Below the pieces are notes generated by a model. The model worked only from the letters and a program-made list of their open reading frames with translations. It did not search any database and was not told the origin of the DNA. Source: a virus (lineage: Duplodnaviria > Caudoviricetes). From it: a stretch of 30,908 nucleotides of DNA. This document shows, in pieces, positions 2,361-24,112 of the stretch (the first letter of the stretch is position 1; each line of letters opens with the position of its first letter). The DNA is taken from the IMG/VR virus record IMGVR_UViG_3300036801_000124, positions 1 to 30,908 of that record, one strand, 5' to 3'. A program made the translations under genes and the position numbers.

Positions 2361-5300
2361 CTACGCCTCGGTGACCTCGTTGACGAGGCTGCGGATCTCG
2401 TCCTCGACGGTCGGCGCGACGATCCCGGCAGCGACGAGCGCGACCGCGACGGGCTCGTCATCGACCTGCTCGAATGACGCGCGCAGCGAGCGCGGCACCG
2501 GGAAACCCGGCACGTTGACGCTGAGCAGGGCGACGAGTTCGAGGTTGCCGTCCACTCCGCGCCAGTCGCCCGAGACGGTCGAGCCGCGCAGGATCCGCAG
2601 CTTCTCCTCGGACAACTCCGGGTTGATCGCCCCGGCGAACCAGCCGCCGTGCTCGTCCTCTCCGAACGAGACGTGGGCGGCGACGGTGCCGGTGTTGTCG
2701 TAGTGGCTCGTCGCGTCCTGGCGCGAGAGGCGCGTCCCGGCGTGCGCGGAGTCGAGCGTGATCTTGCCGACGGCCAGGTGCTCGCCCTCGTCGCACTCGA
2801 TCTCGCCGAGCAGGTAGTAGGCGTAGTTCGTGTTCGAGTGGGGCGCGGTGACGCACTGCTCGAACGAGAGGTGGCACGTGTCCCACTGCCAGGCGTGCCC
2901 GAAGATCTGGCCGCCGTCGGTGATCGTGAGCGGCGTCACCTCGTCGAACTCGGGATTCGCGAACCAGTCGGCGGGCGGCGAGACCGGCGCGAGCCCGGCG
3001 GCGGCAGCGGTGAGGGAGGGCTCCTCGACGATCAGCGGGATCGGCTGGAGCTTGTAGTACGGCTCGACCAATGTCTCGGCGCAGCCGCAGTCGATCTCGA
3101 ACTCGGCCGGGCCGGTGTAGCGATGCGGTACCCAGCCACCCCCCGCAGCGACGAGGTCGATGCTGGCCTGTCCGAACGCAGGGAACGGGCAGACAGTCGC
3201 CATCCCGATCACCGCACGGTTGATCGCGAGGACGAGATCGCCGTTGAAGAAGGCGTCCATCAGGTCCTCCTCGGGCGGGGCGTCTTCACCAGACGCACCC
3301 GACCACACGCCGTCTTCGCCCTGCACCGCGATCCACTCGCCGTCTTCGTTGAACCAGTCGGCCTTCGAGACGTGCTCCCAGTCGAGCGGTGCGATGTCCA
3401 CCGACAGGCCGGTGAGGGACTTCTCACCGACCAGGGCCTCGATCTTCTGGCCCCACTCGTCGTCGCTGAAGACGCCGGATGCCTTGATCTTGCCGTCGTC
3501 GCGCCACATCGCGTCGATCCGGCCTGCGACCTTCGCGCGGTCGTGGCCGCCCTCGGCGCTCGTCTCGATCAGACCCATCAGCGTCAGCGGAAGCTGGCGC
3601 GCCTGCTCGTCCGGGGGGAGGATGATCGAGCCCGGCGCGAACGCGCGGCCGTCCTCGGTCAGGACGCCCTCCGGCACGAAGGTCGCAGTCCACTCGTGGC
3701 CAGCCGGATTCGCGGGCGGCGTGATCTCGTCGGAGCGCTCCGGGATGACCTCGGAGACCTCCGGGATCGCCGCCTCGGCGGCATCGGCGGTCAGCGTGAG
3801 GTCGGTCAGCGAGAACTTCAGCTTCGACTGGCGCTCCATCTTCGTTTCGACGTATCCGGCGTCCTCGACCTCGACCCAGTCAGCGCGGTCGGCGAGCACG
3901 GGGTCGCCGTCGCCGCCAACCGTCAGACCAGCGACGTAGTAGTCGCGCTCGTCGCAGATCAGGACCTTGTCGAGTCCGACGCTCACATCGACGGCGGCGG
4001 GCCAGTAGGACGTGTCGCTCTCGTTCGGGTGCAGCAGCGCGTTGATGTCGCAGAGGAGATCCATAAGACCCTCTTCCGGCCCCCAGACGACATCCCCGGC
4101 GGCCGCGCTGAGCGCGAGTAGCGCGCGGCGCGCGATCTGGCCGATCTCCGCCTCGAACCCGGCGAGATCTGGCCGTGTGGCGACGATCACGTCGGCGAGC
4201 GCGGTCACCTCGGACTCCGGGTAGGCGAACTCGCCGCAGCGGCAGGTGCCGCGACCGTCTTCGTGGTCGCAGGTGCCACCCGCGCCGGAATGCTCCGAGA
4301 AGGCGTGGCCGCACGCGCACTGCACGCTGGCGGCGAAGTCATCGACGGCGTCGAGCGCCGCGAGTTCCGGCTGCGCCGCCATGTCGTTGTCGTCGGGCTG
4401 GTCGTTCGAGGGGGTACCGCCGTCGTTCCCGTCACCACTGCCACCCTTGTTCTTCTTCAGCCGCTTGTCCTTCTTCGTGCCCTGCGACGGCTCGCCGCCG
4501 AGTTCGACCGAGATGATTTCGGCGATCTCGCCCTGGATGACGAGCGCCCAATCGGGGTCAAGTTCTGCCGCGCCCGGGCCTAGCGTCGTCTTCCAGTAGT
4601 GGTAGCGCTCGGCGAGCGCCGGGGGGTTCTCCGACCCGATCTCGGCGTAGGCCAAACGATAAGCGGCTACCTGGAGCCCTTCCGATTCAGCGCTTTCATC
4701 TCCTGCCAGATCTGCTCCTGTTCCGTCAGCGCTGTCGGTGTCGTGCTGAGATCCCCGCGCGCCCGGCGTCCTGGCATGGTCAGCGCGAGACGCGCCTGCG
4801 GCAGCTTCACGACCAGGTACGGCAGCATCAGTCGAAGCAGTTCCCTCGCCGTCGGCCCCGTCCAGACCAAGCGATATGCCTGCCGCCAGTTCGGATTCGT
4901 TCTCCGCATCTCCATCAGCGAGCCCCGACCGAGCCAGCCCTGGATCATCTCCAGCGCTGCCCGGTCGCAGTTCGCGATCACGACCGTCAGCGAGTACGTC
5001 CACGCGTCCGTGACCGTTCGCCGCGCCCCCACTGGTCCCCGCTGCGCTCTCGCGCGACGAATCGTGATCGTTCCCTCCCCGTCCAGAAACCCCGCCAACC
5101 AGGCGCGTTGCGCTCTCGTCAGCGGACTCACTATCGGCCCACGGGACCGTGATGCTCTCGTCGCCATACTTCTTCCTGGCGGCAGCATAGTACGCCGCGA
5201 TCTTCGGCTTGGCCGCGTCGCCGCCCTCGACGCTCGCACCACGCGCCCCCTGAAGCGCTGCCGCTGCGGCGGTGACGCCGCGCCAGACAGCGGTGAGCTT

Positions 5301-5636
5301 CCCGTCGATGACGGTCGCGAACGGCAGGTGGAAATCGCTGAAGTTTGAGCCATCCCCGTCCTTGACGAAGAACGCCCGCCCGTACTTCGCGTTCGGCGCA
5401 TCGTCGGCTCCGGCCCACGCGCGCACGGCCTTGTCGGCCGCGCCCGAGTCCCACGCAACGCCGCGATCTGACAGCGGCAGGCCGGTCGAGCCGGACGCTG
5501 CGGCTACGACGCTGAAGACGAGGTCGTGGATGTCGCGGATGTCTGCGAGGCTGAGCGTGTTGGTTGCGAGGCGGCGGCTGGCTGCGCGGCGTGCGCGCCT
5601 GCGGTCTTGGCTGTTCCCGCCGATGTTGCGGCGCAT
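2361..5636 (-). CDS. Capsid maturation (prohead) protease/scaffold multidomain protein
   Basis: SD AAGGAGG. N-domain LPL..AWD..A...Y.RAF..D...FHLPFA...LQGARG...YY...PW; protease-like block EGVLTEDGRAF...GHD.A.VAGRID...GLSVD...ATVCPFPAF; C-domain PPADWF.NP...FGH..W..CH...HYDNTG...SGDWR...VNVPGFP, as in actinophage capsid maturation proteases. Confidence 0.8.
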   Translation of the reverse strand: MRRNIGGNSQDRRRARRAASRRLATNTLSLADIRDIHDLVFSVVAAASGSTGLPLSDRGVAWDSGAADKAVRAWAGADDAPNAKYGRAFFVKDGDGSNFSDFHLPFATVIDGKLTAVWRGVTAAAAALQGARGASVEGGDAAKPKIAAYYAAARKKYGDESITVPWADSESADESATRLVGGVSGRGGNDHDSSRESAAGTSGGAANGHGRVDVLADGRDRELRPGSAGDDPGLARSGLADGDAENESELAAGISLGLDGADGEGTASTDAAVPGREAAAGASRADHARTPGARGSQHDTDSADGTGADLAGDESAESEGLQVAAYRLAYAEIGSENPPALAERYHYWKTTLGPGAAELDPDWALVIQGEIAEIISVELGGEPSQGTKKDKRLKKNKGGSGDGNDGGTPSNDQPDDNDMAAQPELAALDAVDDFAASVQCACGHAFSEHSGAGGTCDHEDGRGTCRCGEFAYPESEVTALADVIVATRPDLAGFEAEIGQIARRALLALSAAAGDVVWGPEEGLMDLLCDINALLHPNESDTSYWPAAVDVSVGLDKVLICDERDYYVAGLTVGGDGDPVLADRADWVEVEDAGYVETKMERQSKLKFSLTDLTLTADAAEAAIPEVSEVIPERSDEITPPANPAGHEWTATFVPEGVLTEDGRAFAPGSIILPPDEQARQLPLTLMGLIETSAEGGHDRAKVAGRIDAMWRDDGKIKASGVFSDDEWGQKIEALVGEKSLTGLSVDIAPLDWEHVSKADWFNEDGEWIAVQGEDGVWSGASGEDAPPEEDLMDAFFNGDLVLAINRAVIGMATVCPFPAFGQASIDLVAAGGGWVPHRYTGPAEFEIDCGCAETLVEPYYKLQPIPLIVEEPSLTAAAAGLAPVSPPADWFANPEFDEVTPLTITDGGQIFGHAWQWDTCHLSFEQCVTAPHSNTNYAYYLLGEIECDEGEHLAVGKITLDSAHAGTRLSRQDATSHYDNTGTVAAHVSFGEDEHGGWFAGAINPELSEEKLRILRGSTVSGDWRGVDGNLELVALLSVNVPGFPVPRSLRASFEQVDDEPVAVALVAAGIVAPTVEDEIRSLVNEVTEA
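4667..5131 (-). CDS. Single-motif LAGLIDADG homing endonuclease nested in the +1 frame of the protease gene
   Basis: AWLAGFLDGEGTITI motif, YSLTVVIANCD...LEMIQ..LG.G, YRLVW, LL..MLPYLVVK..QA and C-terminal MKALN.KG; likely GTG start at 5131 (154 aa). Confidence 0.85.
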   Translation of the reverse strand: MSPLTRAQRAWLAGFLDGEGTITIRRARAQRGPVGARRTVTDAWTYSLTVVIANCDRAALEMIQGWLGRGSLMEMRRTNPNWRQAYRLVWTGPTARELLRLMLPYLVVKLPQARLALTMPGRRARGDLSTTPTALTEQEQIWQEMKALNRKGSR

Positions 5637-5686: not shown

Positions 5687-5701
5687 GAGGCTACTACGAG
5701 G
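5687..5701. repeat. 15-bp motif GAGGCTACTACGAGG, copy 1 (copy 2 at 22015-22029); candidate late promoter element on the minus strand
   Basis: Exact repeat; both copies lie just upstream of head genes and contain TAGCCT (TANNNT) on the minus strand. Confidence 0.55.
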
Positions 5702-5954
5702 AGGTGTCGGCGTCCTCGGGCCAGGCGAAGTGCGTCTCGTAGCGGGTGACGCCGTCGCCGTGCTCGGTCACCTCGCTGCGGTCGATCAAGTCAAGCGTCT
5801 CCTGGACGGCCTCGGAACGGGACGCGTTCCGGACCATCAGGCCGATGGCGACGAGCGCGCCGTACATGCGGTCGGACTGGCCTTCGCCGGGGGTGAGCCC
5901 GGCCGACACCTGGCCCGCGAGCGACAGAGCAAGGCCCTCGTCAATGTGCGGCAT
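5694..5954 (-). CDS. Hypothetical protein
   Basis: Last gene of the leftward accessory operon; native codon use. Confidence 0.6.
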   Translation of the reverse strand: MPHIDEGLALSLAGQVSAGLTPGEGQSDRMYGALVAIGLMVRNASRSEAVQETLDLIDRSEVTEHGDGVTRYETHFAWPEDADTSS

Positions 5955-6228
5955 GGTCGGACCCTACCTCGGGGCACTCCAGGTGGATGTAGGCGATGCC
6001 CTGGTACGGCCTGTCCTTCCAGCGGAACTGGATCACGAGCGTGCGGTTCTCGATGAACTGGCCGCAGGCGCGGCAGCGCGGGCGGCGGCCGGTGAAGCGG
6101 AGCCGGGTGCGGACGGGGCCGTAGACGCGGCCGCGTTCACCGAGTCGCTTGATGGCGAGGTCGCCGGTGTAGCTGAGCGAATCCTCGCGGAGCGCGGCCG
6201 CCTCGCGGTCATTGATGTACGTCGTCAC
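5941..6228 (-). CDS. Small putative Zn-binding protein
   Basis: CRAC...HLEC ligand pattern; GTGA coupling. Confidence 0.6.
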   Translation of the reverse strand: MTTYINDREAAALREDSLSYTGDLAIKRLGERGRVYGPVRTRLRFTGRRPRCRACGQFIENRTLVIQFRWKDRPYQGIAYIHLECPEVGSDHAAH

Positions 6229-6680
6229 GGTGAGTCCCTATCGGCAGCAGCCTTCAGTTTGTTGAGCATCTGGACGGCGCTCGCGCGCTCATGCTCACCC
6301 GTGCCCGGGTGGTCGATCAGGGCGCGCAGCTTGCCATCGCGAGCGCCACGCTTCCCCTTGTCCTGCTCAGCGCGCAGCATCCCAACGATCTTCTCCGCGC
6401 TCGCGAGCAGCATCTCGAAGTCGGGGTTCTGGTGGTCGCCAGGCGGTCCGAGGTCGAAGCCGAGCATCGTTCCGCCGTCGGAGTGGTAGTACGCCTTCGG
6501 TGGTCGCTGGTTGACGACCATCTCGACGGCGTCGAGGACGCTACTGAGGAAGCGCTCGACTTCCCAGTCGGAGGCGGTGTCGTCGATGGCGAACCAGCCG
6601 CCCTTGCGCGCCCACGTGGCGGCGGTGCGGAGGCCGCGCTCGACCTTCTCGGTCCGCTCGATGCGTTCCCGGTAGCTCAT
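6225..6680 (-). CDS. Hypothetical protein with a DUF2786-like C-terminal motif
   Basis: KLRALIDHPGTGEHERASA..ML.KL; ATGA coupling. Confidence 0.55.
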   Translation of the reverse strand: MSYRERIERTEKVERGLRTAATWARKGGWFAIDDTASDWEVERFLSSVLDAVEMVVNQRPPKAYYHSDGGTMLGFDLGPPGDHQNPDFEMLLASAEKIVGMLRAEQDKGKRGARDGKLRALIDHPGTGEHERASAVQMLNKLKAAADRDSP

Positions 6681-7666
6681 CGGTTGAGCACGAACGCGCG
6701 GCGCGGTTTCACGACGAGCGGCAGAGACTCGTCGCCCTTCACATAGGGACTAATCCAGATCTGGCGGTGGACGTTCGACGCCGGGTACCACTGGTTACGC
6801 CAGTGGCCGGACACGATGAACCGGTGGCTGTAGTTCGCCGGGCCGTGCTCGTCCTCGGTCGGCTTCGACCGCTCCCGGCGCAGCCGGACGACCAGGACCT
6901 CGCGGTCGGTGAAGCCGAGCCGTTTCGCCTGCCGCCGCTGCGGCCGTGGCCCGTACTGGCGCTGCTGGACGGCGATCTGCTGCTGCATCAGCCGGAACGT
7001 GACCTGGAGGATCCGCCACCACCAGCCTGCGCCGGTCGGCTTACCCTCGGTGTCGAACTCGTTTCCGTCGAACGTCATCCCGAAGTACCAGGGGGTGAAG
7101 TGGGTGATCTCGACCGGTGGGGAGACCAGTCCTCTTGTGCGGTACGACTCCGGGTCACCGACGACGTAGATCGTGAGCGCGATCCCGTGGCTCCGGCCGT
7201 CCGCGCCTTCGTTGTCGAGCCAGTCGCGGAGGCTGGCCTCGTCGGTCAGCTTCGGCGGCGGGTCGTCCGGGTCGTGGCCGAAGAGGGGCGTCCACGAGAA
7301 CCCGGCGATCTCGATGGGCGTGTCGAACCGGTCGAGCACGTCAAACGGCTTCTCGTAGAGGAGGAACCCGGACATGGTCGGCAGGTCGGTGACGTACAAC
7401 GGTTCCGGCAGGAACGGCTCGGCCAGACCGGGGTCGGTGGCGTAGTCGATCAGGTCGCACATCTCGCCGGACACGAAGATCGGGTCGGCCCCTTCGAGCT
7501 TCACCTCTTCGACCGAGGCGAGGCGGATCGTGAGGTCGCGCGACTGGTCGTTCATGCCGCGCATGAAGTCCTGCATCCGCAACTCCATCGAGCCGCGCCC
7601 GATGGGGCTGCGGAGCCACCGCCAGAGGCCCATCTGCGCGTCGAACGCGTCACGCCATCCGCTCAC
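6677..7666 (-). CDS. Conserved phage hypothetical protein with a C-terminal GHWR/IWI.P..KG motif
   Basis: HRFIVSGHWRNQWY...IWISPYVKG; GTG7666 is coupled to the upstream stop. Confidence 0.7.
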   Translation of the reverse strand: MSGWRDAFDAQMGLWRWLRSPIGRGSMELRMQDFMRGMNDQSRDLTIRLASVEEVKLEGADPIFVSGEMCDLIDYATDPGLAEPFLPEPLYVTDLPTMSGFLLYEKPFDVLDRFDTPIEIAGFSWTPLFGHDPDDPPPKLTDEASLRDWLDNEGADGRSHGIALTIYVVGDPESYRTRGLVSPPVEITHFTPWYFGMTFDGNEFDTEGKPTGAGWWWRILQVTFRLMQQQIAVQQRQYGPRPQRRQAKRLGFTDREVLVVRLRRERSKPTEDEHGPANYSHRFIVSGHWRNQWYPASNVHRQIWISPYVKGDESLPLVVKPRRAFVLNR

Positions 7667-7848
7667 GTCGTCACCCGGTCGAGGACGTGCGAACGCGGGA
7701 CGCGGAACAAGCCGCCGCCGAGTTCGCCGAAGTCGATCCAGACCCACTTCGTCCCGACGGAGTCCACCGTGCCGGTCTTGATGACGCCGAACATGCGCGG
7801 GTGCCACGCCTCCACGGTGTCGCCGACCTTCGGGACGTAGCCGGTCAT
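7663..7848 (-). CDS. Small SH3/KOW-like beta protein
   Basis: KVGDTV...GTVDSVGTKWVWIDF; ATGA coupling. Confidence 0.6.
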   Translation of the reverse strand: MTGYVPKVGDTVEAWHPRMFGVIKTGTVDSVGTKWVWIDFGELGGGLFRVPRSHVLDRVTT

Positions 7849-8033
7849 GCCTCGCCCCGCTGCTCGGCCTGGTCGAGGTCGTACATGAGGGTGTCGTCCT
7901 CGGCCGACCCGTGGTCGTGAAGCCAGCGCTTCACCTCGGCGCGCGTCGCGAGGCCGGGCTTGCCGTAGTGGAGGTTGATCGCCCGGCGGTAGTCGTCACC
8001 GACCGTGGTCGTGTAGGCGACGCGCACCCTCAC
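7845..8033 (-). CDS. Hypothetical protein
   Basis: GTGA coupling with both neighbours. Confidence 0.6.
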   Translation of the reverse strand: MRVRVAYTTTVGDDYRRAINLHYGKPGLATRAEVKRWLHDHGSAEDDTLMYDLDQAEQRGEA

Positions 8034-8689
8034 GACTTCGCCTCCCATTTCGCACCGGTCGCTTCGGCCTGCTGGAGCAGCCACTCGAACACGTCAGGAT
8101 CGACGCGCACGTCGCCGTACGAGAATCCGGTCGGCCGACGCCGGTAGCTGCCGCTGCTCACGTACGCCGTGCTGATCGAGCGGTCTACATCGCCGTGGAT
8201 GCCGGAGTAGTCGTTGTGGATGATCGCGTCGATTCCGAGCGCCCCGAGCCGGGACAGGTACGCGGCGAGCTTCGGCTCGAACTCGTCTGCCTGAGCGTTC
8301 GCGTCGGCGTGCTGCTGCCGTTCGTGCTCCTCAGCAGAGCGCCGCTCAGCCTGGATGTCATCCCAGAGGCCGACGAACAGCTTGCCGACCTGGCCCTTGC
8401 CGTTGCGGCTCTCGTGGAAGGCGTACGTCTTCGCGATGTCGCCTGCGTGCTTGTTCGTGTCGGCTACGAGGTTGAACTCGCCGAAGCCAACGCGGGTCGG
8501 CTCGGTGAACTCGACGAGGATGCAGCCACCCTTCGTAACGGTCTCGCGAGTGCCAGCCCAGTGCCGGTACTCCGGCCAACTGGCCTCCACATCGACGGCG
8601 ACGACTTTCGCCGGGACGACGTGCGAGTGCTTGCTCGGCTTCAGCCGGACGCCGTAGGTCTCTCCGACCTTGATGTCCGCACGCTTCAC
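8030..8689 (-). CDS. Hypothetical protein
   Basis: MKRADIKVGETYGV start typical of phage early proteins; central coiled coil; GAGG SD. Confidence 0.7.
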   Translation of the reverse strand: MKRADIKVGETYGVRLKPSKHSHVVPAKVVAVDVEASWPEYRHWAGTRETVTKGGCILVEFTEPTRVGFGEFNLVADTNKHAGDIAKTYAFHESRNGKGQVGKLFVGLWDDIQAERRSAEEHERQQHADANAQADEFEPKLAAYLSRLGALGIDAIIHNDYSGIHGDVDRSISTAYVSSGSYRRRPTGFSYGDVRVDPDVFEWLLQQAEATGAKWEAKS

Positions 8690-8964
8690 GACGGCACCTC
8701 CTCGCCGGTCGCCGTGTCGAAGACGGTGACCCAGCCGCCCGGCACGAACCCGTACCGGTTGGCGGCCGCCTCGGCAGTCCCAAGCGTGTCGCTGCGCTTG
8801 ATCGTCTCCGGCCCGAACGCGTAGTACGTCTGCGGGACGTAGCTGTTAGTCGCGCCGTCCCAGCGGCGTCCGTCGAAATCATCGGGGCGGCAGGCTACGG
8901 CGATGTAGCGGCACTGGCTCTGGTTGCGGAGCGTTAGGCCGCGAATGTTGAAGGTGCCCTTCAT
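8686..8964 (-). CDS. Hypothetical protein
   Basis: ATGA and GTGA coupling. Confidence 0.65.
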   Translation of the reverse strand: MKGTFNIRGLTLRNQSQCRYIAVACRPDDFDGRRWDGATNSYVPQTYYAFGPETIKRSDTLGTAEAAANRYGFVPGGWVTVFDTATGEEVPS

Positions 8965-9896
8965 GCCGCCACCGCCTCGGGGACTGCCAGCGCGGCGGCG
9001 TCCCCCGCCGCGCTGGTCTCTTCATCCTCGAACGTCGCGCCGACAACCAGGTCGGCCGCCTTCTGCGCCTGAGCGGCAGCCTGGACGACGAGCTTTTTGT
9101 CGTCCTTCAGCGCGCTCAGCCAGTTGGCGATGTACGAGGCCGAGTTCTCGTGCGTCTCGTCCTCGATCCCCGAGAGGCCGCAAAGCATCGCGGCCGTCAT
9201 CTCGGCGACGAGTTCTTCCTTCGCGTACGGCTCGATCGCGAACCCACCGGCGACGTACCGCTTCAGCCGCGACGGGTGCCCGGTCGAGTGAGCAAGCTCG
9301 TGGAACAGCGTCTTGTAGTAGAACGGCGCATTTTCGAACTGGCCCAGCAGCGGGATCCGGACGGAGTCGAGCGAGGGCGCGTAGTACGCCTGGTCGCCAC
9401 CGAACGAGTAGGCCGGGCCGCGACCGTCGAGGTAGTCCTCGACGAGGGCCTGCGCCTGCCCGATCCGCTCGTGCTCGGGAAGCTCAACAGTCGGCAGCGG
9501 CTCGATGCCGTCGGCCTGCTCGACGTTGAAGACGGTGTAGTCGCGGAGAAACATGACCTGCGGCACACGGCCGTTCTCGTCGGGCTCGGCGTCCCGCTTC
9601 GGGATCCGCTTCCAGAGGATGACGTGGGTGCCCTTCTCGCCCTTGCGGATCTGGCCACCCTTCTCCGTGATCGCCTTGTACGTGCCCCAGCGCGGGTCGC
9701 TGTAGCCGCCTTCGAGCGCGGCCAGGCCGAGCAGGAAGACATTGATTCCACGGTAGGGCTTGCCGCTCCGCACGTTGCGCGGACGGCTGTCGGCACCGAG
9801 GTTCTTCCACGGCTGGTGCCAGGGCACGGTGCCCTTCTCCAGCGACGCGATGATCCGGTCGGTGACCTCCTGGTAGATATCTCTCTTCTCTCTCAT
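8961..9896 (-). CDS. ardC: ArdC-like antirestriction protein (ssDNA-binding domain plus zincin-like metallopeptidase)
   Basis: DIYQEVTDRII..LE.G.VPW..PW, Y.GIN..LL, W.TYK...GGQIRKGEKG, YTVFNVEQ, AYY.P..D.V..P, HELAHSTGH..RL.R, YA.EELVAE, SASYI..WL..LK.D. Confidence 0.92.
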   Translation of the reverse strand: MREKRDIYQEVTDRIIASLEKGTVPWHQPWKNLGADSRPRNVRSGKPYRGINVFLLGLAALEGGYSDPRWGTYKAITEKGGQIRKGEKGTHVILWKRIPKRDAEPDENGRVPQVMFLRDYTVFNVEQADGIEPLPTVELPEHERIGQAQALVEDYLDGRGPAYSFGGDQAYYAPSLDSVRIPLLGQFENAPFYYKTLFHELAHSTGHPSRLKRYVAGGFAIEPYAKEELVAEMTAAMLCGLSGIEDETHENSASYIANWLSALKDDKKLVVQAAAQAQKAADLVVGATFEDEETSAAGDAAALAVPEAVAA

Positions 9897-9933
9897 GTCA
9901 GGGACTCTACCACTACGACCGTAGTGTTGTCAA
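9897..9933 (-). promoter_or_regulatory. Sigma70-type promoter for leaderless ardC transcript with an operator-like palindrome in the spacer
   Basis: TTGACA (9933-9928), 18 nt, TGG-TAGAGT (9909-9904), 7 nt, ATG; spacer contains CACTACG-GT-CGTAGTG (9911-9926). Confidence 0.8.
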
Positions 9934-10304
9934 ACTCGCTCGGCCTTCACGACCGGGTCGTTCCGCTTCGACCGATACCCGGCGAACGTCGTGACCGCTG
10001 GGAGGTAGAACGCCGTGCGGATCGCAGCGTGCTCGTTCACGGCCCGGACAGTGAACGCCTCGCGGCGGCGCTTATCGCGCTTGCCGCGCACGGTCACCTT
10101 CCAGAGGTGAAGCTCCTCGATCTCGCTGACACGACCGTCCGCGTATGAGTCGCCCATCGTGGCGCGGCACTTCTCGCGAGCGGCCGCGAGGGCGGCGTCG
10201 CGGTCGGGCGCTTCGACGTTGCCGCCCCACTGCATCGCCGCCTTCCACGGCCCGATGTCGAGCCGGTCGCCCGAGTCGAGGACGACGTGCCAGTGGCGGA
10301 TCAT
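9930..10304 (-). CDS. Hypothetical protein
   Basis: ATG10304 with AAGGAG SD and ATGA overlap; two similar V.A.D/N..AA units. Confidence 0.6.
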   Translation of the reverse strand: MIRHWHVVLDSGDRLDIGPWKAAMQWGGNVEAPDRDAALAAAREKCRATMGDSYADGRVSEIEELHLWKVTVRGKRDKRRREAFTVRAVNEHAAIRTAFYLPAVTTFAGYRSKRNDPVVKAERV

Positions 10305-10543
10305 GCTCCGCTCCTTCCGTAGATCGAGACTCCGCCCTGGCCGTCCGCTTCCGCGCGACCGACGACGTTGCCGTTGGGACACCGGACGTAGAAGGTCTCG
10401 TCGCGCCCGGCGCGGGTTGCGTTGTTGGCGAACGTGGTCGCGGCGCTGAGCCCCGGCCCTTCGCCCTCGGCGGGCCGGTCGATGCCGGGGCCGCTGACGG
10501 TGAAGTCGCCTTTCCTCTTGCTGTTCAACTTGTCCTCTCTCAC
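10301..10543 (-). CDS. Hypothetical protein, first gene of the leftward accessory operon (start uncertain)
   Basis: ORF directly downstream of a TGC-TACGAT -10 element. Confidence 0.55.
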   Translation of the reverse strand: MREDKLNSKRKGDFTVSGPGIDRPAEGEGPGLSAATTFANNATRAGRDETFYVRCPNGNVVGRAEADGQGGVSIYGRSGA

Positions 10544-10550
10544 GATTGCC

Positions 10551-10564
10551 CTACCATCGTAGCA
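10551..10564 (-). promoter_or_regulatory. Extended -10 (TGC-TACGAT) overlapping a CTAC-N4-GTAG palindrome
   Basis: The + strand reads CTACCATCGTAG at 10551-10562. Confidence 0.55.
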
Positions 10565-10678
10565 CAACGGCTTGGCGGCCCTCCGGACAGAAGTTGCCTA
10601 TTTGCGAAACAACGCGTCCCGCAATCCCTTTGTGTGAGCCAATGTAAAACCGACTTGACGCCTATTTCAGGATCGGGC

Positions 10679-10708
10679 TTGACTACGGCCGTAGTGGGCT
10701 GCTATCGT
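10679..10708 (+). promoter_or_regulatory. Sigma70-type promoter of the rightward accessory operon with a palindromic operator-like site
   Basis: TTGACT, 18 nt, TGC-TATCGT; perfect palindrome ACTACGGCCGTAGT at 10682-10695. Confidence 0.75.
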
Positions 10709-10739
10709 CCCCGGTGTGAGTGAGAAGAGAGGAGACCCA

Positions 10740-11009
10740 ATGAACTACGACGCCCTATGGCGCGAGGACGCGACCGAGGACGAGGTCATCGAGACCTACC
10801 AGGCGCTTGTCGATACCGGGCAGGCATGGAGGCTCGAAGGACACGTCGGTCGCACCGCGATGTCGATGATCGAGGACGGCGTGATCGCGCTCGGCCCCGA
10901 GGGACACCGCGACTACTACGGCAACTACGTCCCGAGCAGGACTGAGGTTGAGCCTGGATCGAAGGGCTCGGTCGAGTTCGTGCTCGAACACTCCGGAAGA
11001 GAGGTGTGA
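10740..11009 (+). CDS. Small conserved phage protein
   Basis: GAGGAG SD; YQALVDTGQAWRLEG.VGR.A..MIE.G motif seen in small phage proteins. An alternative leaderless GTG lies at 10716. Confidence 0.7.
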   Translation: MNYDALWREDATEDEVIETYQALVDTGQAWRLEGHVGRTAMSMIEDGVIALGPEGHRDYYGNYVPSRTEVEPGSKGSVEFVLEHSGREV

Positions 11010-11314: not shown

Positions 11315-11469
11315 AGATCGAGTACGCGGACGGCTTCGAGGAGATCGTCGCCGTCCAGGCGCGCAACATCAACTCCGGCTTCGGCAAGGCGCTGAAGCGG
11401 GCGAACGAGCCGCTGGGTAACGGGCGGCGGCGCGAGCTTCACTCCGTCGCGTTCTGGATGGTGAGGTGA
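11311..11469 (+). CDS. Small hypothetical protein
   Basis: GTGA overlaps at both ends; native codon use. Confidence 0.55.
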   Translation: MKIEYADGFEEIVAVQARNINSGFGKALKRANEPLGNGRRRELHSVAFWMVR

Positions 11470-12122
11470 GCATGTTCCCGCCCATCGAAGATCTCGTAAC
11501 GCCCGAGGCGCTGGCGGCGATGCCCAGCAGCCAGCGCGCGACGTGGGAAGGACTCCTGCGCCAGCGCGAGGAAGGCAAGCGCATCCTGGATGCCCACATC
11601 GCCGATGGCGACTGGAACAAGGCGCTCCAGCTTTGCGATTCGCAGAACCGCGCACCGATCCTGGTGCAGGCGTGCGCGACACTCGAAGGCGACAGCCTCC
11701 GCGCCCTCCTCGCGGACTGGTGGTCCACGACTGAGGCATGGTCGGGAGATCCCGAGCTTCGCCGGGGGATGATGTCGGCGCTCCGCAAGGCGGCACCCGT
11801 GATCGTGCCCTCAGACGACGCAGGACGACGCCAGCGGCCGCCCGACGGCCTGTTCAAGGTCTACAGGGGAAACCTCGGCGAAAAGCCGGACGCGGGCTCC
11901 TGGAGCCTCGCCCGTGAGACAGCCGAGTTCTTCGCCCGGATGGCGGGGAGCGTGCGCGGCCAGCTTATCCTCGGGATGAGCGGCCCTGGCCCGGCGTCGA
12001 TCTGGCAGGCCGTCTGCGACTCGGACGACGTGCTCGGATTCTTCGACGACCGGGGCGAGTACGAGATCGTGACCGACCGCGTGAAGAACGTGAAGCTGAT
12101 CGCGACGCTGGAGGCGTCATGA
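11466..12122 (+). CDS. Putative ADP-ribosyltransferase-fold protein
   Basis: R-S-E pattern: VYRG...GSWSL....A.FFA...RGEYEIV. Confidence 0.55.
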   Translation: MSMFPPIEDLVTPEALAAMPSSQRATWEGLLRQREEGKRILDAHIADGDWNKALQLCDSQNRAPILVQACATLEGDSLRALLADWWSTTEAWSGDPELRRGMMSALRKAAPVIVPSDDAGRRQRPPDGLFKVYRGNLGEKPDAGSWSLARETAEFFARMAGSVRGQLILGMSGPGPASIWQAVCDSDDVLGFFDDRGEYEIVTDRVKNVKLIATLEAS

Positions 12123-12586
12123 CGTGGACGTTCGACGCCATGCTGGCGCGGGTGTTGCCGCACGCGACGACCTCCGTCGCGTCAGAAGATCACGGCCCCG
12201 AGCATTGGCGACGCGTTGCCCAGAACGGCGAATACCTGGCCGCCTTGACGCAGGGGGCCGACTGGCACGTGATCGTTGCGTTCGCGGCCCTGCACGATTC
12301 GCAGCGCCATAACGAGTACGTGGATCCGGAGCACGGACGGCGCGCGGCTGAACTCGCGAACCGCCTCGATCTCGGGCTGAGCCTCCCCCAGTTGGCGATG
12401 GTGCGCTATGCGTGCGAGCACCACGACCAGGGGTTGCTGACCATCGACCCGACGGTCGGGTGCTGCTGGGACGCAGACAGGCTCGACCTGCCGCGCGTCG
12501 GCATCGAGCCCAACCCAGCCCTGCTTTCGACGCAGGCTGCGCGGGCGGCGATCCGCACCGGCTACCAGGAAGACGAACCGGCATGA
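12119..12586 (+). CDS. HD-domain phosphohydrolase
   Basis: HG.EHW.RV, FAALHD..R, EHG.RAA, C.HH, CWDADRLDL.RVG..P. Confidence 0.85.
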   Translation: MTWTFDAMLARVLPHATTSVASEDHGPEHWRRVAQNGEYLAALTQGADWHVIVAFAALHDSQRHNEYVDPEHGRRAAELANRLDLGLSLPQLAMVRYACEHHDQGLLTIDPTVGCCWDADRLDLPRVGIEPNPALLSTQAARAAIRTGYQEDEPA

Positions 12587-13401
12587 GCGACAACGCGAAG
12601 AAAGAGATCAACGAGATCATCCGCAAGCTGAAGGCCCACGGCGTCGAGGTTGAACAGCTACGGAACGGCCACTGGCGGACGAAAACGACCCCGCCGGTGA
12701 CGATGTCATTCTCGCCCTCAGACACGAACGCCGCCCACGCGGCCCGTCGGGATCTGCGGAGGCTGCTCGGGATCGACTTGCGTGCTCCGCAGAAGAAGAA
12801 GGGTTCGACGCACGACTTCGCGATGCAGCGTCTCCACGCCCGGGCACTCGCACAGATGGAGCGCGGCGCGAGCATCGCCGACCTCGCACGGATGGCCGTC
12901 TATGAGAGCGAGGCGAAGCGGATCGGTGGCTGGACATCGTTGAACGCGGCTGAAGTCGGGATCTCCGCGATGCTGAAGAAGGGGTCGCGGCTGATGAAGC
13001 CGAACCACGACGCCGTCGCGGCCGCCCTGAACAAGCTGGAGTCCTCGACCGACGATGTGTTCGTGAAGCATCTCGACAAGGCTGCTGAGCACTTCGGGAA
13101 GACGCGGATCAAGGCGAAGGCCGAGCCGAAGTCGGAGAAGGCAGAGACCCATCACCCGGCACCGGCGGAGGCGACAGGCTCGAACCTCGTCGGCCTGACC
13201 GAGGAGGAGCACCGCACGATGCGCGCCGAGAACGACCGACGGCTGGAAGCTGCCGAGGTCGAGGTCAACGAGTTGAAGGATGAGCGGCTACGGCTGATCG
13301 AGGCCGCCGAGGCGAACGGCTCCGGCAAGGTCGAGGTGACCGTGAAGATCGGTCTCGATGAGAAGACGCTCGCACTGCTCACGAAACTGCTACCGTCGTA
13401 G
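12583..13401 (+). CDS. HicA-like N-terminal domain fused to a helical/coiled-coil C-terminus
   Basis: EII.KL...GV.V....NGHW......V.....PSD......RRDLRR resembles phage HicA-like proteins; ATGA coupling at 12583. Confidence 0.55.
   Translation: MSDNAKKEINEIIRKLKAHGVEVEQLRNGHWRTKTTPPVTMSFSPSDTNAAHAARRDLRRLLGIDLRAPQKKKGSTHDFAMQRLHARALAQMERGASIADLARMAVYESEAKRIGGWTSLNAAEVGISAMLKKGSRLMKPNHDAVAAALNKLESSTDDVFVKHLDKAAEHFGKTRIKAKAEPKSEKAETHHPAPAEATGSNLVGLTEEEHRTMRAENDRRLEAAEVEVNELKDERLRLIEAAEANGSGKVEVTVKIGLDEKTLALLTKLLPS
13388..13401 (+). promoter_or_regulatory. Extended -10 TGC-TACCGT within CTAC-N4-GTAG, 7 nt before ATG13404
   Basis: TGCTACCGTCGTAG recurs exactly on the minus strand at 29949-29962. 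Confidence 0.6.
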
Positions 13402-13403
13402 GC

Positions 13404-13565
13404 ATGGCTGAAGACGAGATCGACAAGATCCTCGCCGACGACCCGAACGCGAACGTGGTCGAGGGCGGCGACGAGGTGTGGCTGCTGACCGGCGACCAGG
13501 TCAAGGCCGCCCGAAAAGCGACCGGCCGAGATCAGCCTCCGCCCGAAGATCGCTCGACTCAGTAG
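13404..13565 (+). CDS. Small acidic protein (53 aa, not in the ORF track)
   Basis: MAEDEIDKILADDPNANVVEGGDEVWLLTGDQVKAARK...; GC3-rich codons; leaderless-type promoter upstream. Confidence 0.6.
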   Translation: MAEDEIDKILADDPNANVVEGGDEVWLLTGDQVKAARKATGRDQPPPEDRSTQ

Positions 13566-13786
13566 CGCAGCGCGGAGACCTTCTCCTCGACCACGTCGAG
13601 GACGGCCCGCTCCGCCGTCGGCTCAACCCAGCCAGGGCTGAGCGCACGTAGAGAGCCTTCCAGGATCGGGTCGCTGTACGTGCCCATGAGCGCGTCGTAG
13701 ACGCGGACAAGCTGGAGGCCGTCGGCGTCCTTCCCGGCGTCGATCATGAACCGGTGGTCTCCCTGTTGAGCGACGATGGCAGCCAT
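13559..13786 (-). CDS. Small protein coupled to the MuF fusion (possible partner or immunity protein)
   Basis: TGATG overlap with the MuF stop codon. Confidence 0.6.
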   Translation of the reverse strand: MAAIVAQQGDHRFMIDAGKDADGLQLVRVYDALMGTYSDPILEGSLRALSPGWVEPTAERAVLDVVEEKVSALRY

Positions 13787-16700
13787 CAGATGCGGAGGTT
13801 CGCAACGTCGCTGAGGATCTTGAAGTCCTGGTAGTTGTCAACAACCTTGCCTGCGAGGCCGACGCGAGCGAGGAGATCGGCGAGTGCGCCTTGGCGGGCG
13901 TTCGCCGCCTTCCCGATGTCACGCAGCGACTTGTAGAAGTCGAAGGAGGTCGGTGGCTCGGTCGGGATGCCTGCCTGCTCGGTCTGCGGGCTGGCCTGCT
14001 GGGTGCCCTTGTTGTTCGCGTACAACTCGGTGACCGCCTCCACGGCCTCTCGCACGCGGCGTGCGTCTTCCCGTGACTGGATCAAGGCCATGTCGGGAGT
14101 GATGCCGCCGATCTCGGCGCTCGTGAGGCCGCCGTGGATCTCAACCTCGACGTATCGGCTGATGTCTTCGAGGTTGCCGGATTCGTATGCCTTGACGATG
14201 TCGAAGTCGCCCGTCCACGATCCGATCCCCGGGTCGGCGAGGAGCGACGGCGACAACTCCCCTCTGATCGCGGCGCGGTACGAGTCGCCGATGGTGAACG
14301 TGGCGCGGGCGTTCACGGACGGGTCGAGGTTGAGGATCAGGTCACCGTACTCCTGCACAATCCCGCCCTCGTCCGCCGTCCCGGAGAGGTAGCCGTAGAC
14401 GGGGCGCTCCACCGGGTCCGCGCCCGCCGGATACCCGAACATATTGCGCTCCGCCTCCGCGCGGCTGGCTGCCATCTCCGGCGTGACGCCGGGAAGCTCG
14501 TACTCCGTCTTGTAGCGGCCGTCCTTGACGATCTCTGCCAGCGTCTCGGGGGTGACACGAATCCGGATCTGTGGGTGCGCCCTGACGTAGCTTGAGATGA
14601 CCTCCTTCGCTGCCGCCTTGTATTCGCCGCTGGTCATGTGGTGGTCGGCGGCGTATTGCGCGATCTGCTTGTCGCGATGCTGGACGGCGGCTTCAGCGAT
14701 ATCGCGAGGCTGGCCGGGGAAGAAGTCGCCGCTGCCCACGGTCGGCGTCGGGTGTGTGATGCCGTCGGGGACGGGCTTCGCGACATCGGTGCAGGAGACG
14801 CCGTAACTGAACACCGCGACGAGCGAAGACTCCGCAGCCGTAGCGCACTTCGGGGCCTCCTCGATGGTGACCACGACGCGGTCGGCCCCAGTGTCGCCCG
14901 GCACCAGTGGATGATCTTCGGGGAAGACATCCTCCATGTGGTTGACCGTGACCGACTTGACCCGGTACATCGTCTCGGGCGGAGCCAGAACCTCGTGCTC
15001 GCCGATGTGGGAGGAGTACGGCCAGATCGGCGCGCCGGTGTGCGCCTTCTCGACACGGAAGATGAGGCCCGGCCTGTACGGGTTGGCGTAGCCAGACGCG
15101 AGCGCCGCATCGGTGGTCAGCGACTCGACCTCCCCCGGCTCGCCCATCTTGACGTAGCTGCCGACCCGATACTTCTTCTGCGCCCAGTTCGCGAGCGCGT
15201 CGGTCTGTTCCTTGAACGTCTCACGGAGGCGAGCCTGCGCCAGCGCCGCGTTACCGAGTCCCATCTTGCCGATGATGTCCTGCTCGATCTGGTTGTACGT
15301 CTCCGACAGGTTCGGGTCGATCCCGTTCGCCTTGACGGCCCGGTAGAGCGTCGTGTCGGGCGGCAGCGGCGGGGCCGATTCGACGACTCGTTTCAGGTTG
15401 TCGGCCGCCGTTTCGACTTCCTTCTTCGTGCGGTACCACTGCAACTTCTTCGGGTCGAGCTTCTTGCCCGCGAGGAAGTCGTTGATGTCGATGTAGCCGG
15501 TCTGCGTCCAGTCGTCGAGGATCTTCTTGTCGGCGGCCGAGAGGTTGTCGAGCCACGTCTTCTGCGGCGGGGCGTTGATGAGCTTGTCCATCTCCGGCCA
15601 CTCGGGCGCGATGATGGCCTCGCCCCGCGCCGTCTTCACCGTGGGCGTGTCGGCCGTCGGCACATCGGTCGCGGTCACGCCCTTCGGCCGCGAGAACTCG
15701 TCGAGGGCCTTCTGGTAGTCGCCCGTGTCGCGCTCGATCATCGAGAGCGTGCCGCGCTTCACGTCGTAGCCGCCGAGATCGTGGCCGAGCTTCGTGAGTT
15801 GCTTGACGAAGTCCGCGCCGGACCCGATCACCTGGAGGCGACCGTCGGAGGTGAACCGGCCGCCTGAAACTCCGGCGGACTTCATCGCTGCGAGGACCTT
15901 GTCCTGCGGCGTCGCCGTGCGGAACGTTGCCATCAGATCGTCGCCGGTGGGCTTGACGTTGATCGTGAGCGAGTCGATGAGCGGCTGGAGTTTCGGACGT
16001 GTCTCGCCGCCGACCTGGTCGAACGGGATCGCGTCGAACGCCTGAGCATCTGCGTCGATCTTGTCGCCGAGCTTCCAGAAGACGGGGTTGCCGCTCTTGT
16101 CGGTGCTGAGTTGGAGGAGATTCCAGTCGGGATTGCGGGCGGCCATGCCCATCCCGAACTGCACGCCGTCGAGAGTCGAGAAGTTGCCGTGGACGACTGA
16201 GCGCTTCAGGTCACGCGAGACACGGGCGAGCATGGCGCGGGCGTAGCCCTGTCCCTCGAACTTCTTGTCGAGCGCGAGCAGACCGATGTAGACGTGGTCC
16301 GGGTCTTCGGGCTTCGTGTAGAAGTCGAAGTGGCCGAGGGAGTTGCCCTCCTTGTCGGTGACCTTCATCAGTTTCCCGATCTTGCTCGGGTGCGGCCGTG
16401 GCGGGTACTCGTACGAGTAGTCCTCGTACTCGACCTTGAACCCATCGAGGGCCGCGTCAGCGCCTTCCGGCGCGTAGTCGAGCGCTGGCGTCCTCGCCCT
16501 GAAAAGGAGCACGCCGTCCTGGTTGTACGACTTGCCGAGGTTCGCCGAGAAGGCGTGCGCTCGGGCATCCAAGTTGAACCGCTCCAGGTTCGGTGGCGAC
16601 CAGCCCCACTCCAGCACGGAGTTCGCGTCGGTGAAGACCTGGCTGGCCGGAACCTGCATCGAGATGACGTGACTCTCTAGGTCCTGGCCGAGGTTGCCGT

Positions 16701-19700
16701 CCCCGTTCAACTCGGCGTACTTTTTCACCGGGCTGACCCAGTCTCCCGGGTTGATCTCGGTGACGTTCTCCGGGACGGCGCGGTAGATCGTGACCATCGC
16801 GCTCGGGTCGCCGTGGACCTTGTCGATGATGTCGAAGGCTTCTTGGTCCATGTCCGCCTGCCCGGTCCCGTAGATGCGAATGGCAGGCACGACCTTCGGC
16901 TGGTAGGCGACCTGGATGTTCTTCGAGTAGATGTCTCGCGGATACAGGTCGTGCTGGGTGAGGTCGTACATCGGCGCGTTGTAGCCGTCGTCGGTCGGGG
17001 CGCGATGCTGGATCTTGTAGGTGTCGTCTTCGGGCTTCGGCTCGGTCGGGCTGACGTGGATCGAAACTGACGGCTCGGTGTCGCCCTCCCAGATGCCGGT
17101 GACCTTGTCGATCCCGTCGATATGGACGCCGTACGCGTCCGCCGATTTCTTCGCGTCCTCAATGAACTGCTGGTACTTCGCCGAGTCGTAGAAGCCGACG
17201 GCGTTGTCGATGCCAGCCCGGAACGGCGTGATCCCGATGTCGATGGACTGATCCGGCATCTGCGCCATCACGGTCGGCGGCACCTCGGCCGGGACGGGCG
17301 GCTTCACAACCGTCTTCGTCGCGTCGAACGCCGACTGCGGCGGAATCCCCATTTTCTCGCTGAAGTCGCGCGCCTGCTGGAGCAGCGTCGAGATCGGCTC
17401 GTCGATCCGCTCGACCTTGATCGGGTGCGGCACGTCCGTGCCGGTTTGGTAGTCGCGGCCGAGGGACGCGGCCCAGCGGTGGTGGCCGTCGAGAATGTAG
17501 TTGTCGCTGGAGATCACGACCGGGTTGCTGGCGATAGGCGTCGCGCCCTCGGTCTCCATCTCGTCCATCGTCTTCGCGATCTTCGGGCCGTCCAACTCCG
17601 TCTGCGTGGCCCGCAGTGACTCCGGATTCACCATCTCCTCCTCGACCTTCACGCCCTGGTCGCGGAGCGACTGGAAGAATGGCTCCGAGATGTCACGCCA
17701 CGGCGACGGCTTCCCCTCGAAGATCGTGCCCGGCAGCTTCTCGGCCGGTGAGCCGGGGATCGGGAGGCCCGCCATCTGTGGCATGTCGATGCGCGGGATC
17801 CCGAGCGAGTCCTGCGTGAACAGGTTCGTCCCCGGCACCGACACCTTCCCGAGGTCGAGGCTGGGTGCCTCCTTGCCCGCCTTCTGCGCGTCGGCGGCCA
17901 TCTTGCCGAGGTCGTCGATGAACGTGTTGACCTCGCTGGTCTGCGCGAGCCGGACATTCTTTCCGGCGGCCAGTTCCCTCGCCGCCTCCTCCACGCTAGA
18001 GGTCGTGAGATCCGGCTCCGGCCACGGCACCCTGACCTGCCCGGCCTCGCTCGTGACGAGGTTCTTCAGGTCGTCGCCGATGGTCTGGATGAGTCCCGGC
18101 TCTTGCTCCGCCTCGCTCTGACCGGCAGCGACAGGTGCTTCCGTGTACGTGAGGGTGCAGCGACAGTTGATCGTCTCGCCCGGCTCACCGTTCGGGTCGC
18201 CCGGGAACTGAAGCTGGTCGCCGCCAACCTCGAACGTCGCGTCTTGCGGGACGGTCTGGCCGTCGAGCCCGGCGTAGTCCTCGTGGCGCGGGTAGCGCGC
18301 GCCGGGCGCGGTGTGCCAGACCTTGTTGTATTTCTGGCCGGTGACGGACGCGACGAGTTGGGTCGCGGCGAGCGAGCCGCCGTTCACGGCGCGGGCGAGT
18401 TCGGTGCGCGCGATCATCGTCGATCTGACCTTCGAGGCAGCCTTCATGCCGTCGCGGATCAGTCCGGCAGTCTGCGGCACCGTGAGCCCGTTCTGATAAG
18501 CCGAGCCAATGATCTTCATAAGGTTCGCGCGTGTTGTCATCGCGATGTTCGTCACCTGGCTCGCGCTGACGGCGAGCATCTGCGCGGTCAACGGATTCGA
18601 CACGTCCCACGAAAGCCCGGCCTGCTCCAGCGCCGGAGTCATCGTCTGCTCGATCATCGCCCTCCGGACAGGGTCGGTCTTGGCGAGGATCTGCTGGACG
18701 AGCGCGTTCACGTCGATCAGTTCGTCCGGGTAGGGCGGCGTCCACGACGCGGCGGCCGTGAGGGCGCGCACGCCGACGAGCGGCAGCGCAACCTCCTCGT
18801 CGTTGCCTCTGACGATGTGGAGCGAGTCGAAGTGGAGCGGGGCACCGGAGGCTGATTCGGGATAGCTACCTACCTCTTCTGCCGCTCCCGCCAACGCCGA
18901 GTCGCTTCGCGTCGGCAAGCGAGACAGATCCCCCAACCGCGACTGTCCCGCCGCTCGTAGCGCGTCCCGTGGATCGAACACACGGCTTGCCCCGGGTTGT
19001 GAATCTGACCGTGCTCCGAGTTCGTGACGGCCTGCATGTGTCGTGTATTCAGACACCGGCCCTTCCGGCAGCGATGATGCAGGTGAACCGCCGAGGGCAG
19101 GTAGCCCTTCTCCACCATCCAGACGATCCGATGGGCTTGAATCGGTCGCCCCGAAACCTTCACCTGCACGCTCGCTGCCGACGGGTTCCTCTCGCAGATC
19201 AGGCAGTCGCCGTCCGGTCTCGCCTCCGCGAGCAGTCGTCCCGCTTGCTCCTCCAACGTCAGCGCTCGCATTGGTTAGGCCCACATTACCGTCGTTCACC
19301 GTCAAGTGAGGCAGGAAGCCGTGGTCGCGGCTGAAGTTGATGCCCGCATCGAGGAGCGCTTCAGCGACGGCTGTACGCGTCTCTACGAGGCCGCGCACGT
19401 CCGGCAGAAGGATTCCCACCCCTGGCGGATCGAACGTCCCGTAGCCGCCGACAACGCCGGAGAGAGGCGCATACGAAGCCGCAACGGGCTTCAGGGCGTC
19501 GGCGATCTCCTGCAACGGCTGATCGGTCTCGCCGAGGTAGGCGAGGGTGACATGCAAAATCTCGGGCGGGTCGCCGTCAGGGTCAGCGAGAGCGGCGGCC
19601 TCGACCGGTCGCGGCTTCAACGCGATCATGGTCGAAGTCGAGGCCACATCCGCATTCGCCGCCGACGCGCCGAAGTGGCGGAGCGCCTTGTCCTGGAACC

Positions 19701-24110: not shown

Positions 24111-24112
24111 GC

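Follow-up and report, generated by a model that had tools for sequence, protein, structure and literature searches.

The endonuclease genes and their hosts

The window analysed here is a whole phage contig of 30.9 kb (30,908 nucleotides, 67% GC; IMG/VR record IMGVR_UViG_3300036801_000124). Its portal, MuF and head-protease-like genes, as assigned by PHROG matches, all lie on the minus strand, and the latter two each enclose, in another frame of that strand, a complete endonuclease gene, one of the LAGLIDADG and one of the HNH family. The host genes, the nested open reading frames (ORFs) and the stretches of host protein that run across them are as follows.

2361..5636, minus strand: host gene 1, head-maturation-protease-like, 1091 amino acids; an open frame with no internal stop
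4667..5131, minus strand: nested single-motif LAGLIDADG ORF, GTG to TAG, 154 amino acids, +1 frame (Pfam, PHROG, ESM Atlas, AlphaFold2)
4656..5138, minus strand: host-frame stretch of 161 residues between the conserved PW and LAYA motifs; acidic and rich in Gly, Ala and Ser
13786..19857, minus strand: host gene 2, polyvalent MuF protein, 2023 amino acids (Pfam, PHROGs); no internal stop
18754..19662, minus strand: 2H phosphoesterase domain, split by the insert immediately behind the second of its two HxT motifs, both of which are intact
18870..19271, minus strand: nested HNH ORF, ATG to TAG, 133 amino acids, +1 frame (HNH_3, PHROG, motif)
18862..19293, minus strand: host-frame 2H loop, 144 residues long against a median of 9 in 96 relatives, a net gain of about 135 amino acids

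Both nested ORFs start at host codon position 2, each host codon being made up of bases 3, 1 and 2 of the nuclease codons, and the third frame across the inserts is interrupted by 12 stops in one ORF and 4 in the other. The two complete ORFs, their strand and their shared phase had been reported in a preliminary description of the sequence, as had the unbroken host frames (2361-5636 and 13786-19857), and all of this was borne out.

The LAGLIDADG ORF retains an intact motif (LAGFLDGEG) and matches PHROG 5046 over its length (E 6e-21), Pfam LAGLIDADG_1 slightly below the cut-off (E 6.6e-4) and LAGLIDADG clusters of the ESM Atlas at 0.94–0.95. Its AlphaFold2 model (predicted local distance difference test score, pLDDT, 77) matches I-MsoI and I-CreI with a template modelling (TM) score of about 0.7. 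With one LAGLIDADG helix bearing an acidic catalytic residue, and a predicted alpha-beta-beta-alpha-beta-beta-alpha fold, the 154-residue product is a single-motif LAGLIDADG endonuclease. The GTG start fits the length of homologs, with an in-frame ATG at 5167 as the alternative. The HNH ORF matches HNH_3 (E 1.4e-8, 34.7 bits; cut-off 24.8) and carries the core HxC-x4-C-x-N-x2-H-x8-H together with two CxxC motifs; by this His-Asn-His/Asn beta-beta-alpha-metal motif, the 133-residue product is identified as an HNH endonuclease. Both nuclease proteins are absent from a collection of 15 billion proteins in which their hosts are present, and such genes are therefore invisible to gene callers.

The protease-like host matches PHROG 18402 (head maturation protease, E 5e-48, residues 882–1086) and phrog_859 (E 4e-80, residues 607–1080), its conserved C-terminal part lying downstream of the insert, and it shares 63–83% identity with its relatives. 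The MuF protein combines 2H phosphoesterase, MuF, ParB-like, GNAT, ADP-ribosyltransferase (Alt-like) and DUF3626 domains. Its relatives range from about 200 to 2550 amino acids, the ParB-like, GNAT, ADP-ribosyltransferase and DUF3626 domains standing behind MuF (13786-18100).

Inserts and empty alleles

Ten of the 25 relatives returned for the protease-like host possess both flanking anchors (PW and LAYA; two of the ten counts were made by hand), and in these the anchors are 10–13 residues apart, compared with 161 in the window. The net insert is therefore about 148 codons, against 155 for the LAGLIDADG ORF, the first codons of which fall in sequence still resembling the host (SESADE, similar to NESAGE). 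No shadow of this nuclease was found in any of the 25 relatives, the best score being 29 bits against 179 for the window itself.

For the MuF host, the best 150 representatives of a phmmer search were taken, and 96 of the proteins P0029–P0138 have all three 2H anchors. The loop behind the second HxT motif is at most 30 residues long in 89 of these 96, 55–57 residues in three and 134–147 residues in four, namely the window, P0032, P0033 and P0046. The loops of 55–57 residues are other inserts, and P0034 holds another small domain. The net HNH insert of about 135 codons compares with an ORF of 134 codons. Empty 2H alleles are available as DNA (L018–L020, L023, L024, L028, L043, L044); in L020 the host reads HLTV, ten residues, YPESAVG, where the window reads HLTV, the insert, YPESASG. 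Insertion-free alleles, which the preliminary description had proposed to look for, do exist, and its view that the inserts are almost entirely nuclease ORF, with no room for an intron, agrees with net lengths of 148 and 135 codons against ORFs of 155 and 134.

Logan contigs from a single public soil sequencing run span both inserts with no differences (4470-5590 and 18811-19690). This run may be the source sample of the window and is not an independent isolate, but it speaks against an assembly join. One DNA run was listed as holding the sequence, and no RNA run. Read depth was lower over the inserts than over their flanks, and 0 of the 15 listed joints cross either insert; neither observation was used as evidence.

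Composition of the host frame

The probability of a stop-free host frame across the two inserts was 0.23 and 0.14 under the codon usage of the window, and 0.25 and 0.027 under the inserts' own codons. In ordinary genes (19 gene segments), 1024 of 4217 windows of 134 codons and 718 of 3821 windows of 155 codons were open in the same phase, i.e., 19–24%. The preliminary description had argued from stop avoidance. Its hand count is exact, with 11 + 17 = 28 nuclease codons ending in T, of which 22 create a TCN serine codon and none a stop, but the argument is weak by itself when such frames have a probability of 0.14–0.23 and 19–24% of ordinary windows are open as well.

The composition of the host frame is a different matter. 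When the nuclease protein was held fixed and synonymous codons were resampled 10000 times, the observed fraction of Gly, Ala, Ser, Asp and Glu was 0.68 compared with 0.44 expected (z 7.6) and 0.59 compared with 0.39 (z 6.4) in the two inserts, and the net charge was -19 compared with +4 and -7 compared with +8. Restricting the nulls to stop-free ones left the expected composition unchanged. The synonymous shuffling that had been suggested as a check therefore gave a divided answer, stop-free frames being no rarity under the codon usage of the window whilst the acidic composition rich in Gly, Ala and Ser lay far from what the nulls predict. All 420 shifted-frame windows of ordinary genes had a fraction of at most 0.52 and a net charge of at least -2. 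Two free-standing HNH controls gave z of 0.1 and 1.8 and a net charge of +20 (L003 and L051, the same gene by length and coordinates, were counted as one control), and six free-standing or antisense homolog genes contain one to eight stops in the same phase. The non-nested HNH gene of the window provides an internal control.

25318..25815, minus strand: non-nested HNH gene; three stops in the equivalent phase, no host-frame bias

The three stops that the preliminary description had placed in this gene were found where it put them (25766-68, 25556-58 and 25457-59), and a fourth in the same phase (25895-97) is upstream of its likely real start. The opening 14 codons of this gene, which follow a Shine-Dalgarno sequence, are those of the downstream glycosyltransferase (VSGGVCAVML.KDE), and the glycosyltransferase (24524-25321, minus strand) restarts on a synonymously recoded copy of those codons, overlapping the HNH stop. 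This looks like an insertion at the 5' end of a gene that supplies a recoded, probably cut-resistant start.

The bias within the nested genes was followed to the fourfold degenerate sites of their codons, both inserts pooled. Before A, where the choice is Asp or Glu over His or Gln, G outnumbers C by 37:5 (p 2e-4); before C, where it is Ala over Pro, by 30:3 (p 1e-4); and before G, where it is Gly over Arg, by 30:14 (p 2.5e-7). Before T, where it is Val or Leu, there is no bias (8:11, p 0.64), which rules out a general preference for codons ending in G. T is absent from all 44 fourfold sites before A and all 50 before G, and the context-dependent G:C bias persists outside predicted RNA stems. 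The choices of Asp or Glu over His or Gln and of Ala over Pro have no effect on stops, and therefore indicate selection on a translated peptide. Judged from these codon choices, the host frame is likely to be translated across the insert, with its make-up under selection.

Further filled alleles

Whether other hosts hold such inserts was assessed by scoring the residues that each of 176 host proteins permits in a shifted frame, the other filled alleles being available as protein only. The window HNH found four more filled alleles in the +1 frame, at 81–108 bits with the next best at 24, and no match in the +2 frame of any of the 176. An independent, free-standing HNH homolog recovered the same five filled alleles at 47–57 bits, with the next at 20; shuffled controls were run. 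P0032, P0033 and P0046 are filled at the same site as the window, whereas P0123 carries an insert of the same kind at a second site, just ahead of the second HxT motif instead of behind it. In P0123, the MuF/2H part is fused to a head-protease domain in a protein of 1538 amino acids. Both host HxT motifs are kept in all five filled alleles. The host-frame inserts of the four others have net charges of -2 to -6, and the acidic make-up of filled alleles resembles that of real host proteins. No DNA of these other alleles was found in viral contigs, metagenome contigs (five loci, none filled) or GTDB genomes, and a word-indexed search with the window HNH gave 0 of 20 candidates.

On a tree of the 2H domain (97 rows, insert columns dropped), the five filled alleles need five changes. 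The window allele groups with the empty P0030 and P0031 (99% support), P0033 falls within a set of seven of which six are empty (96% support), and monophyly of the five was rejected (approximately unbiased test, p-AU 7e-5, from a quick LG+G4 tree). The HNH insert is thus disjunct in its distribution, while the LAGLIDADG insert is a single copy. Two insertion sites in the aligned proteins require at least two gains, gains and losses being otherwise inseparable.

Linker structure, splicing and translation

In the AlphaFold2 model of the 2H domain, the two halves have pLDDT values of 74–98 and the loop (model residues 122–259) values below 50, and the model matches LigT/2H structures in Foldseek. 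The domain is thus predicted to fold around a low-confidence loop.

The host-frame peptide had been described as lacking intein motifs, and indeed neither insert was found to have the Cys, TxxH or HN/HQ followed by C/S/T of inteins or a match to a Hint family. A scan of the window with Rfam gave no match at E ≤ 1, group I and group II introns were not indicated by any P7-like or terminal group II motif, and the insert junction regions are no better structured than their shuffles (z -1.5 to +0.5). Ribosomal bypass of the T4 gene 60 type involves a stop behind the take-off codon, a take-off hairpin and a short gap (50 nucleotides). The inserts have no host-frame stop and no junction hairpin above chance, and they exceed 400 nucleotides. 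A host restart behind the inserts was also sought, and no start with a Shine-Dalgarno energy of -6 kcal/mol or lower was found near the nuclease stops (the nearest being at residues 477 and 440). The downstream protease and MuF domains therefore most simply need read-through.

Two features may bear on how the HNH protein is made.

19275..19286, minus strand: three-codon ORF (ATG TGG GCC TAA), in frame with the nuclease and separated from the HNH ATG by 3 nucleotides
19066..19180, minus strand: strong predicted mRNA stem of about 20 bp within the HNH ORF (z -5.1)

The three-codon ORF has a Shine-Dalgarno-like energy of -7.6 kcal/mol, a value reached by 14% of 187 background starts, and could possibly, if weakly, act as a re-initiation aid for the HNH gene. 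None of 100 permutations of the ORF's own codons folds as well as the stem, which is absent from the free-standing HNH controls. A hairpin in the LAGLIDADG ORF (z -6.7, the strongest of 512 windows under dinucleotide shuffling) was rejected, being equalled by 15 of 100 own-codon permutations. A helix of 7+3 bp between the flanks of the LAGLIDADG insert was treated as chance, given the 67% GC, the conserved host motifs and its absence at the HNH insert.

Interpretation

The reading that we favour, with a probability of roughly 0.7, is that both ORFs are non-splicing selfish homing elements in the +1 frame of head genes, across which the host is read through as a linker. Little more than a nuclease ORF was inserted into a loop of variable length with the host frame kept open, as the comparison with empty alleles shows, and silent nuclease positions are biased exactly where they decide a host residue. 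Translation would continue in the host frame through the insert, and the codon bias points to selection for a benign, host-like acidic product, predicted to be a disordered linker of roughly 135–150 residues. The 2H domain is predicted to refold around its loop, and the protease insert to fall in a linker behind the N-terminal domain. The nuclease itself would be translated from an internal start of its own in the +1 frame, cut the empty allele in co-infecting relatives and be copied in by repair. For the HNH gene, homing is suggested by the scatter of filled alleles, which occupy two sites, and by the position of a free-standing relative beside a 2H gene, and for the LAGLIDADG gene only by its family, intact motif and mosaic flanks. 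The mechanism proposed in the preliminary description, a dual-coded insert without splicing that is tolerated as a linker, therefore fares well on the empty alleles, the selected composition, the predicted loop and the lack of a splicing element.

Several observations weigh against this reading. Stop-freeness by itself is weak evidence in a genome of 67% GC. The LAGLIDADG insert occurs in one of 26 proteins, the window's own. The flanks of that insert are mosaic, the closest relative (P0002) being identical at 27–30 of 30 residues over most of residues 361–630 and 871–1080, at only 16–20 of 30 over residues 91–180 and also less alike over 691–870, whilst the 26 residues behind the insert best match P0014; such a pattern is compatible with co-conversion and is not unique to the insertion site. 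An alignment as shallow as the one used (16 rows, 4 of them filled) would be expected to give the 2H loop a low pLDDT, and the value is no proof of disorder. The nuclease starts lack a good Shine-Dalgarno sequence (-3.7, -4.3 and -3.1 kcal/mol; background median -4.1), a scan for sigma-70-like promoters found none for the nucleases, and the HNH stem has no explanation under this reading. The full HxC-x4-C-N-H-H motif is permitted in four of the five filled alleles, P0033 being the one in which it is not. Scattered filled alleles can equally come from repeated loss. The host-frame inserts of the other filled alleles are only 30–41% identical to that of the window; the spread is therefore old, and recent homing is not demonstrated.

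It is unlikely that the host is instead read through and the prohead protease then trims the linker during maturation, tolerance coming from proteolysis. In favour of this, processing of head precursors is common, and both hosts belong to the head module, the protease being one of the two. The protease insert falls between domains, where the length of the protein varies, and selection for acidic and small residues would fit a protease-accessible linker equally well. The HNH insert, however, is placed by the model inside the 2H domain, ahead of strands that pair with the N-terminal half, and a cut there would leave a nicked domain; by eye, the ends of the five HNH inserts also share no cleavage-like motif.

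It is quite improbable that the nucleases are no longer mobile, as old fixed or domesticated passengers or, for the LAGLIDADG gene, the product of a single chance recombination, retained because the linker does no harm or because the phage gains from the nuclease in competition with others. The filled HNH alleles have diverged as much as, or more than, their flanks, one of them does not permit the full motif, no good initiation signal is evident and the LAGLIDADG gene is a single copy. Against this, both ORFs in the window are full length with catalytic motifs even though shifted frames readily gain stops (12 and 4 in the third frame), and the filled alleles have empty sisters (96–99% support) and occupy two sites.

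Removal or skipping of the inserts at the RNA level, by an unrecognised self-splicing or enzyme-cut intron or by bypass, with the open frame as a fail-safe, is very improbable: LAGLIDADG and HNH genes are often intron-borne (PMC11855218), the HNH ORF has its strong stem, a 7+3-bp helix is predicted between the LAGLIDADG flanks and Rfam may miss divergent introns, but there is no space outside the ORFs (148 and 135 net codons against 155 and 134), no Rfam match, no motif resembling P7 or the ends of a group II intron, no take-off codon followed by a stop and no flank pairing for the HNH insert, and a removed segment would escape selection for Asp or Glu over His or Gln and for Ala over Pro.

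Genome context

19862..21805, minus strand: portal gene, the next gene upstream of MuF (PHROG 776, portal, E 2e-90)

Between the MuF and protease genes lie non-structural genes that span about 8 kb and run on either strand (5700-13700), among them one with ArdC-N and MPTase domains (8961-9896). In the relatives L018 and L022–L025, the matched parts of the two genes are only about 0.2–1.7 kb apart. A stand-alone gene of 169 amino acids at 1849-2358 (minus strand) has no Pfam or PHROG match, and its domain recurs as an in-frame module in many MuF/2H relatives (P0080, P0091, P0077, P0121 and others). Inserts of about 100 amino acids in P0120, P0121 and P0129 were considered as nuclease shadows and rejected, as they are a real mobile domain related to this ORF. 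A cluster of glycosyltransferase and methyltransferase genes (24524-29945, minus strand) possibly serves virion or DNA modification. Other strongly folding 120-nucleotide windows of the minus strand are at 841-960, 7801-7920 and 24001-24180 (z -4.1 to -5.2).

Comparison with known systems and significance

The preliminary description had offered the arrangement as a candidate new system. This does not hold, since the same design has already been described for HNH endonucleases in phage methylases (PMC11855218). In that paper (Arsenault, Gosselin and Gogarten, 2025), hidden out-of-frame HNH endonucleases lie in the third frame of mycobacteriophage DNA methylases and are proposed to form a non-interfering loop; the ShiLan domain and the Pacc40 gp60 insert were first described in PMC9957025. 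Both the ShiLan inserts and those in the window are nearly all nuclease ORF, on the same strand, in a shifted frame and with the host frame open. Neither shows an intein or intron signal, and the ShiLan loop is also predicted to be unstructured, with a patchy distribution for which a single clade was rejected. There too, the start of the insert resembles host sequence at the site, and free-standing relatives adjoin the host gene (PMC11855218). The ShiLan nuclease, however, starts at nucleotides 18–20 of its insert (third frame, +2), whereas both nucleases in the window are in +1, and ShiLan hosts are dispensable methylases rather than head genes (PMC11855218); one of the nucleases in the window, moreover, is a LAGLIDADG protein. 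In the part of its main text examined, that paper does not report testing the host frame for selection.

Endonucleases out of frame or antisense within inteins have been reported (bioRxiv 10.1101/2025.01.02.630785), as has a cyanobacterial dnaX intein of this non-canonical kind (bioRxiv 10.64898/2026.09.14.751524). As in the window, the endonuclease of these non-canonical inteins overlaps an open host frame, but there a protein-splicing domain removes the linker, and the inserts in the window have no such domain. The nearest annotated phage kin of the window LAGLIDADG protein (30–31% identity) is an antisense LAGLIDADG in the MuF intein of Gordonia phages (L048). A homolog in Xylella phage Bacata (L050:1501-1935) is annotated only from 1687 and is shorter there than the match. 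I-CreI, I-MsoI and I-CvuI share the predicted fold over its whole length (TM about 0.65–0.74), although they are encoded by group I introns and only 17–25% identical. Cluster F methylases, too, are phage genes with a lone, in-frame LAGLIDADG insert for which no splicing element is detected, but that domain appears to be part of the methylase protein itself and to be vertically inherited (PMC9957025), whereas the LAGLIDADG in the window is a separate ORF in another frame.

Free-standing phage homing endonucleases belong to the same families (CcrRogue gp61, L049, 28% identity; Myrna gp95, 38%), but they are intergenic, with stops in the shifted frame and no compositional bias. Myrna gp95 (L051) is the nearest named HNH relative among the matches listed and directly follows gp94, which encodes an 'RNA ligase' with the 2H domain that the nested HNH family occupies. 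This arrangement suggests that the family has long been linked to 2H genes.

The new elements here are a LAGLIDADG case free of any intein, nesting in the +1 phase, hosts that are head genes, and evidence at the level of residues. Searches of the open-access literature turned up neither an out-of-frame LAGLIDADG outside inteins nor a hidden endonuclease with a head gene as host. The design now covers a LAGLIDADG protein outside inteins as well as HNH proteins, and head genes as well as dispensable methylases, and the conjecture of 2025 that hidden endonucleases are tolerated as loops gains a measurable footprint, namely selection on host-frame residues beyond stops. Phage endonuclease inventories would be undercounted, some 'disordered linkers' of phage proteins would be shadows of selfish genes, and the inserts would offer natural examples of long dual-coding sequence. 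We would give even odds to a broader proposal, in which overprinting without splicing is a general third route for homing endonucleases of any family into even essential head-assembly genes. In a single genome, two unrelated nucleases would independently have arrived at the +1 phase, the HNH family would have moved from a free-standing position alongside 2H genes into two or more sites within these, and silent positions would be tuned residue by residue for an acidic linker built into the virion. If this is true, hidden genes of this type would be recognisable across whole genomes by their codon signature, and the HNH mRNA stem may set the balance between the two frames. Compared by design, the inserts in the window work like the ShiLan element, and they stand outside ShiLan proper by host, by frame and, for one of them, by nuclease family.

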